Source: Oligoflexales bacterium
Lineage (GTDB): Bacteria; Bdellovibrionota_B; Oligoflexia; Oligoflexales; Bog-1112
Length of the DNA stretch: 12,361 bases
Direction: 5' to 3'
Assembly (NCBI GenBank): GCA_045105515.1
Contig: JBGCDR010000137.1
Location: forward strand, 1-12,361
Shown: positions 1,160 through 2,521 of the stretch, piece by piece
How positions within the stretch are numbered: the first letter of the stretch is position 1
Layout of the letters: every line of letters begins with the position of its first letter
The notes under the pieces: generated by a model
Database searches by the model: none
What the model saw: only the letters and a program-made list of their open reading frames with translations
Told to the model about the DNA's origin: nothing
Translations under genes and position numbers: made by a program

Positions 1160-2521
1160 ATGGTAACTTGGTTACTCAGGTACTTATTATTATTGTTACC
1201 TGCATTTTTAATAAACTGTGTCGGTGTAGATGTTTTTGCTGCCGAAATTATATCAGACCTTGAAAAACAATTAAGGCGTGAACCGGTAACTAGTCAAATA
1301 GTATATGCAGATAAGCTAATTAATGCCAAAAAAATGGCTAATATAAAGGTTAAATCATCTCATCTAAAGAAAGCGGAATACCTTTACCATAAAGCACAAG
1401 GTGTAATCGGTGGCCATAAATTTCTTAAATCTGACTTTGTTGATCTTGTAAGAGTCGTGAGTTATATAAGATCAAAACAAAAAAAACGCTTAATCGGCTC
1501 TTCTAAATACACAAATATTTATGTGCATCCGAGTGAGGGTGTCTTAAGAATACCGGTGCAATTTTATGACAATAAACATGTGTATATTCATCTCAAGAAT
1601 TTTGATTTGGGAAAAAAGTTTGGAGGTTATAAGACGTTTTCACGAAGCATCGATTTTGACACGGGAAAGATATTTGCTTGCCTTGTAGCTCCGATTCAAA
1701 GAGAAAAAGATAAAACTTCATTGTTGCGTGAACTTAGCATTCAATTATCTTTAAGTAGCTTAAGCTATGTTCTCAGTTTTCGCGATATTGGGCTTTATCA
1801 AGGGTATCGCAAAGGAGCTTTGGTCCATAAGTTCACGTTTCAAACCGAGTTGTTTGAGTCTGATCTAAGCCTTTTCTACTCTAAGAATGTATCGGCTGCA
1901 CACATGGCTAGGATCATGCTACAAGCAAGTAAGGCTGTTTCCCAAATGCATCTTATGGGATACATTCACCGTGATATAAAACCGGCAAACCTTTTTATTA
2001 AAAATACTCAGGGTAATATGAAGCTCGTGATCGCTGATTTTGGACTTAGTCAATCTGTCGCGATGCCGCAATTTGGTAAGCATTTAGCTGGGACGCGTGG
2101 TTATATGGATCCACGTATTAGTTTAAATCATGCTCAGAAGCGGTGGGCATGTCAGACTGTTAAAGAATGTGAATTGTCAGATATCTATTCCCTAGGTATT
2201 AGTTTTTATAGTTTAATAAAAGGGCGACATAACACCCTTAAACAAATCACCAATAAAGTCAATAATATCGCTTTGCCCAAAGACAAGCAAAATCCCCTGC
2301 CAGTTCATTGGATCTATCGTTATTTAAAGGATTTGGACCGTGCTTACCAGAAGGCACTTGATCTGACTTCTTCTAATAGGAACAGTGGAGGAGTTCTTTG
2401 GTCGCTAGAAAAAATTGCGCTGAGTATGGCAAATCCTGAACCGAAAAAGCGCCCTTCACTTAGCTTTGTTATAGATGCTCTTGAACGGCTAAATGCTGAT
2501 TTACCTGCCAAGGATGACTAA
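1160..2521 (+). CDS. Hanks-type Ser/Thr protein kinase with N-terminal signal peptide and atypical (WNK-like) ATP-binding lysine
   Basis: HRDIKPAN (D272), DFG (D293), AGTRGYMDP, SDIYSLG, RPS and alphaC Glu (E191) are all present. N-terminus MVTWLLRYLLLLLPAFLINCVGVDVFA looks like a Sec signal. Confidence 0.92.
   Translation: MVTWLLRYLLLLLPAFLINCVGVDVFAAEIISDLEKQLRREPVTSQIVYADKLINAKKMANIKVKSSHLKKAEYLYHKAQGVIGGHKFLKSDFVDLVRVVSYIRSKQKKRLIGSSKYTNIYVHPSEGVLRIPVQFYDNKHVYIHLKNFDLGKKFGGYKTFSRSIDFDTGKIFACLVAPIQREKDKTSLLRELSIQLSLSSLSYVLSFRDIGLYQGYRKGALVHKFTFQTELFESDLSLFYSKNVSAAHMARIMLQASKAVSQMHLMGYIHRDIKPANLFIKNTQGNMKLVIADFGLSQSVAMPQFGKHLAGTRGYMDPRISLNHAQKRWACQTVKECELSDIYSLGISFYSLIKGRHNTLKQITNKVNNIALPKDKQNPLPVHWIYRYLKDLDRAYQKALDLTSSNRNSGGVLWSLEKIALSMANPEPKKRPSLSFVIDALERLNADLPAKDD

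Follow-up and report, generated by a model that had tools for sequence, protein, structure and literature searches.

A gene at positions 1160-2521 of the forward strand of contig JBGCDR010000137.1 from an Oligoflexales bacterium (assembly GCA_045105515.1; 12,361 nucleotides, analysed at full length and referred to as the window) encodes a Hanks-type (eukaryotic-like) protein kinase in which the lysine of strand beta3 is replaced by leucine (L175). According to sequence alignment, the only invariant lysine of its N-terminal lobe (N-lobe), K158, lies exactly at the position occupied by the catalytic lysine of WNK (With No lysine K) kinases. We consider it fairly probable that this protein, P0001 (an open reading frame [ORF] of 453 codons, 453 amino acids), is an active kinase that uses K158 to hold the phosphates of adenosine triphosphate (ATP). 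Most members of its family begin with a signal-like segment, and a bacterial family of this kind, with both a relocated catalytic lysine and signal peptides, seems to be undescribed.

The stretch flagged in a preliminary description of this DNA, 1604-1735, corresponds to residues 149-192. The Gly-rich loop and the start of strand beta2, G155-G156-Y157-K158-T159-F160, lie at 1622-1639 (+ strand, as for all kinase features below), as placed by alignment with CaMKII and by secondary structure assignment with DSSP. The proposed ATP-phosphate lysine K158 is encoded by AAG at 1631-1633. At 1676-1684, the 'AxK' site of beta3 reads A173-C174-L175 in the alignments with CaMKII and CaMK1D, and L175, in place of the canonical lysine, has the codon CTT (1682-1684); both codons were read directly. 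The glutamate of helix alphaC, E191 (GAA, 1730-1732), falls within a helix of the structural model (residues 182-198). The catalytic loop H270-R271-D272-I-K274-P-A-N277 (HRDIKPAN) is encoded at 1967-1990, and the metal-binding motif D293-F294-G295, which opens the activation segment and reads DFGLS in P0001, at 2036-2044.

The position of the lysine depends on the alignment register. phmmer aligned P0001 with CaMKII without a gap from the Gly loop through beta3, that is, from 'GgyKtf' to 'ifacLv' on 'GAFSTVHRCVNKRTGEVCAVKV'. In the phmmer alignments 'ifacLv' lies opposite 'vcavKv' of CaMKII and 'lfavKc' of CaMK1D, and 'GgyKtf' lies opposite 'GAFSTV', with K158 at the third position of GxGxxG (a serine in CaMKII). 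Because this alignment is gapless, we place L175 at the beta3 lysine site, with K158 at position three of the Gly loop. The strands assigned by DSSP in the model (loop 155-158, beta2 159-165, turn 166-170, beta3 171-179) fit the same register. Codons and alignment together bear out the earlier claim that a missing beta3 lysine is accompanied by a lysine directly after the aromatic residue of the Gly loop.

K158 and L175 are 17 residues apart, exactly as are Lys233 and Cys250 of WNK1, and the spacing of K158, F160, A173 and L175 reproduces that of Lys233, Val235, Ala248 and Cys250. The latter four, together with Ile227, are ATP-site residues of human WNK1 (PMC12362796; this and the other papers cited are drawn on through excerpts of their texts), so that the 17-residue spacing given in the preliminary description agrees with published residue numbers. 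As in WNK1-4, a small or hydrophobic residue stands where the beta3 lysine would be (Cys250 in WNK1, Leu175 in P0001), a lysine comes directly after the aromatic residue of the Gly loop and two positions ahead of the hydrophobic residue of the adenine pocket (Lys233/Val235; K158/F160), and the alphaC glutamate, HRD and metal-binding aspartate are kept. The distances to the 'A-x-' of beta3, 15 and 17 residues, are identical to those of WNK1. In WNK kinases the lysine from beta2 stands in for that of beta3 (PMC4718504, PMC12599244, PMC13519141). WNK1 is active with Lys233 contributed by beta2 (PMC4718504, PMC12599244), and POMK is likewise active with a beta2 lysine (PMC13519141).

To see how far the pattern extends, we turn to the relatives of P0001. 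A word-indexed search returned nine full-length relatives (74-25% identity), followed by a gap in E value from 4e-35 to 2e-9, and an exhaustive search of 1.84 billion representatives returned 37 matches at E<=1e-30. Roughly 45 of the representatives listed are single-domain proteins of 400-480 amino acids with an N-terminal extension in common, and the family comprises about 50 sequence clusters. We aligned 49 sequences, five of which are fragments, and counted each position over the rows with a residue in that column. In the N-lobe, K158 was found in 45/45 and L175 in 46/46, together with G155 (45/45), F160 (44/45), A173 (43/46) and E191 (46/46). The catalytic residues were similarly constant: H270, D272, N277 and D293 in 49/49, K274 and G295 in 48/49, R271 in 43/49, and F294 in 38/49 (tyrosine in 9, leucine in 2). 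T312 of the activation-segment motif G-T-x-x-Y is threonine in 43 and serine in 6, the alphaF aspartate D341 is aspartate in 45 and glutamate in 4, and the subdomain XI arginine R431 is present in 47/47. The preliminary description had named K170 as a residue that might occupy the catalytic position instead; it is conserved in only 20/46, and we ruled it out as the compensating lysine. The lysine and leucine at 158 and 175 were also present in 12/12 gene copies from 11 GTDB genomes. The co-occurrence of a beta2 lysine with a non-lysine at beta3, proposed earlier for homologues, is thus invariant, in what is indeed a little-studied bacterial family, and the reported integrity of HRD, DFG and the alphaC glutamate holds across it as well. 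A distant member outside the window, P0257 (26% identity), keeps the beta2 lysine and the beta3 leucine, and has HLD for HRD and DYD for DFG; its aspartate at the place of the DFG glycine resembles the one described in the DLD motif of POMK.

As a background we took from the same searches 217 kinases outside the family, with 328 N-lobe segments between them; a crude regular expression found the Gly loop in 276 of these segments. The third Gly-loop position in these 276 was glycine in 176, alanine in 41, serine in 13 and lysine in 2. Both lysine cases have the beta3 lysine, and one of them is an artefact of the regular expression; a lysine at this position combined with an absent beta3 lysine was found in 0/276. 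Two other kinases of the same genome have the canonical glycine and the beta3 lysine. Since these are canonical and the generic N-lobes lack the combination, the K158/L175 pattern is not a quirk of the lineage and, as judged from these alignments, is more than chance.

P0001 is a Hanks-type protein kinase by both profile and fold. It matched the Pfam family Pkinase (PF00069) over residues 155-372 with E 1.1e-24 and 87.7 bits (cut-off 31.7). An AlphaFold2 model built from ten family sequences (predicted local distance difference test [pLDDT] 87, predicted template modelling score [pTM] 0.84) is a bilobal kinase, and the model, its GSK3beta alignment and Foldseek delimit the kinase domain to 1577-2497 (residues about 140-446, with a helical insert near 372-410). 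Foldseek matched the model to CaMKII, Wee1, ERK2 and PknB at E of about 1e-11, PknB being at rank 22. The best structural re-alignment was to GSK3beta (5air_A; Z 23.7, root-mean-square deviation 3.0, 283 residues aligned), followed within about 1.5 Z by SRPK1, CK2, ERK2, CLK1 and CDK12, and all 1000 re-aligned chains reached at least Z 8. In the alignment with 5air_A, P0001 shares with GSK3beta and the CMGC group extra N-terminal strands (from model residue 121 on) and a helical insert in the C-lobe, but the identity is 14-16% and many other kinase groups lie within the same 1.5 Z. CMGC kinases keep the beta3 lysine. By sequence, the best PDB matches found with phmmer were kinases of the CAMK group (E 2e-12). 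All 12 NCBIfam kinase families listed, PglW and MAD6 among them, fell far below their cut-offs (best, PknB_PASTA_kin, 52.1 bits against 450; T4SS_LegK1, 29.7 bits against 550), and the ESM Atlas gave generic kinase clusters only. The protein ends about 7 residues past the last kinase helix, and Pfam gave only families of the kinase type, including matches to Kdo/WaaP and ABC1 that were weak and below their cut-offs. The absence of the beta3 lysine is compatible with membership of the kinase fold, as it is for WNK.

The identical lysine position and spacing, together with a generally eukaryotic-like fold bearing a CMGC-like insert, could be explained by horizontal transfer of a eukaryotic WNK gene, the lysine position being inherited. 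We regard this as extremely unlikely. No WNK was among the 60 PDB sequence matches listed for P0001, of which the best were CAMK-group kinases, nor among those listed for P0257; this is weak evidence by itself. Equally weak, no WNK was among the 50 structural rows listed from Foldseek and re-alignment (GSK3, SRPK, CK2, ERK and others), and N-lobe fragments of 56 and 101 amino acids gave 0 PDB matches at E<=10, though WNK1 structures are deposited. WNK kinases have a DLG motif and, C-terminal to the kinase domain, autoinhibitory and CCT-like accessory regions. P0001 differs in reading DFG, in stopping at the end of the kinase domain with no such accessory domain in Pfam, and in being bacterial with a putative signal peptide and an N-terminal extension of its own. 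Because specific kinship to WNK was not detected among the listed matches, a convergent, independent origin of the WNK-like lysine is likelier, and this is probably how it arose. The family appears WNK-like in one defining respect, the lysine site, and is not established as WNK; it is neither POMK nor one of the named bacterial kinase or pseudokinase families.

The N-terminus of P0001 has a feature that the preliminary description did not mention, a putative signal peptide. Residues 1-27 (1160-1240) have one positive charge (R7), a hydrophobic core, a small-x-small site (VFA followed by AE) and then an acidic stretch; the protein begins with MVTWLLRYLLLLLPAFLINCVGVDVFA up to this site and continues with AE. 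The Kyte-Doolittle window reached 2.48 at residues 10-21. A hydrophobic N-terminal segment was present in 41/45 family members, two of the four exceptions being N-terminally truncated, and lipobox-like LVGC or LVSC occurs in members of one genus and LIGC in another representative. From the signal-like segments and these lipoboxes, we infer that the kinase family is exported by Sec. Such an N-terminal signal would turn the question into one of an exported enzyme rather than cytoplasmic signalling. The lipobox-like starts (LVSC, LVGC or LIGC) are those of L095 (7398-8687) and L096 (7638-8927), both of genus g5, and of P0134 and P0136; owing to them, some homologues may be lipoproteins and not soluble exported proteins.

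Between the signal-like segment and the kinase domain lies a family-specific extension (residues 28-150, 1241-1609), in which variable helices are followed by conserved strands (YVHP..PVQFY.N.HVYIH..FD), the latter forming part of the N-lobe sheet. The AlphaFold2 model places helices at 50-109 and strands at 120-144. The strands from 120/121 on align to the N-terminal strands of GSK3beta, and because the GSK3beta match begins there, the strands before the Gly loop appear to act like the extra N-terminal strands of GSK3. Folded alone, the extension gave pLDDT 77.5 and a best Z of 4.4, with no fold match.

The family has a restricted distribution. We searched 131 GTDB genomes with P0001 at E<=1e-15. 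Relatives were found in 11 of the 15 other genomes of its own GTDB family (labelled Oligoflexales), in 0/79 genomes from the other 15 families of the order and in 0/115 other genomes of the phylum. The kinase gene occurs twice in one genome. A search of genome contigs returned no family member among 78 loci from 600 listed stretches; generic kinases were listed instead. No neighbour or operon partner was conserved across genera, synteny being limited to the genus, and for this reason we regard the gene as an accessory gene that stands alone and does not belong to a signalling operon. Between members of the genus, kinase identity is 66%, as compared with 72% for an M14 peptidase and 81% for the neighbouring aminotransferase; this yardstick of rate applies within the genus only, as clear orthologues of the latter two are lacking beyond it.

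Several observations weigh against an active, exported kinase that works with K158. The Gly loop is degenerate, its first glycine not being conserved, and HMMER places a 2-residue insertion (K153-F154) before it. When eight members were aligned with the 328 generic N-lobes by MAFFT, 'GGYK' was placed on the common beta2 motif 'VVYK'. On this 'VYK' register K158 would correspond to a common lysine with no part in catalysis, which would leave the family without any phosphate lysine; this is the main technical weakness of the lysine assignment. The side chain of K158 may also point elsewhere than to ATP. A second basic residue of beta2, R162 (1643-1645; arginine in 42/45), follows four residues after K158 in the motif K-x-F-S-R-S. 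The gene is missing from four genomes of its GTDB family that are 92-94% complete. The signal peptides were called by a hydropathy window and by eye. Finally, Sec export would lead to the periplasm, which has no known ATP pool, so that catalysis would need a further delivery step. We rejected the 'VYK' register because 3-4 extra residues would have to be inserted into the beta2-beta3 hairpin; the HMMER register, by contrast, has no gap, keeps the canonical spacing of 17 and fits the strands of the model.

If the 'VYK' register were nevertheless correct, or if K158 were structural, P0001 could be a pseudokinase or nucleotide-binding scaffold that has simply lost its beta3 lysine and works by binding. 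The lysine is missing in 46/46, the degenerate Gly loop with its insertion and the MAFFT placement are in its favour, the predicted export destination has no ATP pool that we know of, and such families are common in bacteria (PMC12599244). On the other hand, D272, K274, N277, D293 and E191 are invariant or nearly so, which would be unusual in a dead kinase, and the bacterial pseudokinase families tabulated in the excerpted text of PMC12599244 are degraded in HRD and/or DFG. The cost of the hairpin insertion, against a gapless register that agrees with the model strands, counts against it too. We judge a pseudokinase to be unlikely.

The predicted export also brings to mind POMK (SgK196), a sugar kinase of the secretory pathway that lacks the VAIK lysine and has moved it to beta2 (PMC13519141). 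Like POMK, P0001 would work outside the cytosol, in its case after predicted Sec export, and it might be an extracytoplasmic kinase of a glycan, a lipid or another envelope component. The export-like signals of the family, the DYD of P0257, which recalls DLD of POMK, and the weak, sub-cut-off Pfam matches to Kdo/WaaP and ABC1 are in line with this. However, the POMK lysine pairs with the aspartate of DLD and its other motifs are highly divergent (PMC13519141), whereas the family of P0001 keeps DFG (its glycine in P0001 and in 48/49), the alphaC glutamate (46/46) and a canonical, protein-kinase-type HRDxKxxN, together with G-T-x-x-Y, the alphaF aspartate D341 and the arginine R431. Its best matches in both sequence and fold are protein Ser/Thr kinases, POMK is absent among the matches listed for P0001 and P0257, and no conserved neighbour in envelope biosynthesis was found. 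An envelope-component kinase is therefore quite improbable in our estimation.

Among bacterial proteins, P0001 shares its Pfam family and fold with Hanks kinases of the PknB/Stk1 type and with injected effectors such as LegK1. Those kinases keep the beta3 lysine; they stay in the cytoplasm or are injected, with no Sec signal. P0001 differs from them in its order of putative signal peptide, N-terminal extension and kinase, with nothing after. Because the VAIK lysine is missing, motif screens would class its family as pseudokinases, alongside ActPs1-3, GLW, CP1, DYD and DLHK; these, however, have a degraded HRD and/or DFG, or a lysine-to-arginine change (PMC12599244). In the excerpted text of that paper, a WNK-like compensation is raised as a possibility for bacteria, with WNK itself as a eukaryotic analogy only (O'Boyle et al. 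2025, PMC12599244). A family with a beta2 lysine and intact HRD and DFG is not described in those excerpts, in which Bdellovibrio and Oligoflex have 0 occurrences. Our literature search, which did not extend to the atlas of bacterial kinases behind PMC12599244, where the family may be included, found no WNK-type lysine described for a kinase from bacteria.

We propose that P0001 is a catalytically competent Hanks-type Ser/Thr kinase that would leave the cytoplasm via Sec. With the beta3 lysine changed to leucine at L175, K158 at the end of the Gly loop and the start of beta2 would take over, reach the ATP phosphates and pair with the invariant alphaC glutamate E191, a role that would parallel that of Lys233 in WNK1. 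Invariance of the alphaC glutamate and of the full catalytic set at a divergence of about 25% identity argues for both this lysine partner and phosphotransfer. The site of action would be an ATP-containing place beyond the cytoplasm of the producer, that is, inside or at the surface of a host or prey cell. We know of no ATP pool in the periplasm; since the kinase appears to be exported, its action probably follows a further step of delivery, to the interior or the surface of another cell. Such delivery would suit a gene that is accessory, is duplicated now and then and comes from a lineage with predatory relatives, but our confidence in the place of action is lower than that in an active kinase using K158.

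A further reading of the exported kinase takes the analogy to WNK1 one step beyond the lysine. WNK1 has a halide (chloride) pocket behind the ATP site, and chloride inhibits its autophosphorylation (PMC4718504). By analogy, the space vacated at L175 might form an anion pocket and P0001 might be a halide-gated effector, an independent bacterial case of chloride-sensing kinase chemistry tied to secretion. It would then be off in the high chloride outside the cell or in the periplasm, given a bacterium of saline habitat, and on once delivered into the cytoplasm of a host or prey cell, where chloride is low and ATP is present. We hold this to be very unlikely.

The kinase gene is preceded by a Shine-Dalgarno-like AGGGTG (1150-1155), 4 nucleotides upstream of its ATG, and lies on contig C137 of a genome of 6.29 Mb in 461 contigs (90.9% complete). 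A promoter and terminator scan of 650-3200 was uninformative (8 promoter-like sites, 7.7 expected). No RNA run was listed among the matching sequencing runs, and the three full matches were DNA runs labelled plant metagenome, which may come from the source sample.

The other ORFs of the window were annotated as follows. At 90 nucleotides 3' of the kinase gene lies a protein with GXWXG and DUF4334 domains (2611-3075, +), in synteny within the genus only. ORFs of 449, 717 and 174 amino acids at 4331-5680 (+), 5677-7830 (-) and 7827-8351 (-) have no Pfam or NCBIfam family; two of the three have signal-like N-termini, and among 12 loci compared their order is kept only in a genome of the same genus. 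At the N-terminus of a TerD-domain protein (8368-9159, -; Pfam E 3.2e-22) is a long hydrophobic stretch that resembles a signal ('...LFILLMFLLFGTSNLSAG'); most TerD proteins are cytoplasmic. The TerD gene is followed by an M14 zinc carboxypeptidase with a signal peptide (9280-10734, -; E 8.7e-70) and a PqiA-like membrane protein (10900-11472, +). Exported or envelope proteins (the kinase, the M14 carboxypeptidase and the PqiA-like protein) account for much of the coding of this contig. Near its start, two ORFs at 141-433 (+) overlap in different frames; the one at 182-433 matches only the C-terminal end of an FGE-sulfatase domain (E 1.9e-4, below cut-off; profile 165-254 of 255) and may be what is left of a gene, or a gene with a frameshift.

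WNK is the textbook caution against taking a kinase for dead when its VAIK lysine is missing, and it has been regarded as peculiar to eukaryotes. A bacterial family with the same cross-strand swap and the other catalytic residues kept would be an independent replicate of the WNK solution, and the family of P0001 would let the benefits of relocating the lysine be examined directly. It also indicates that cataloguing bacterial pseudokinases by motif can put active enzymes in the wrong class. The near-uniform signal-like segments in a Hanks-type family, from a lineage related to predatory bacteria, hint at phosphorylation outside the cytoplasm of the producer.

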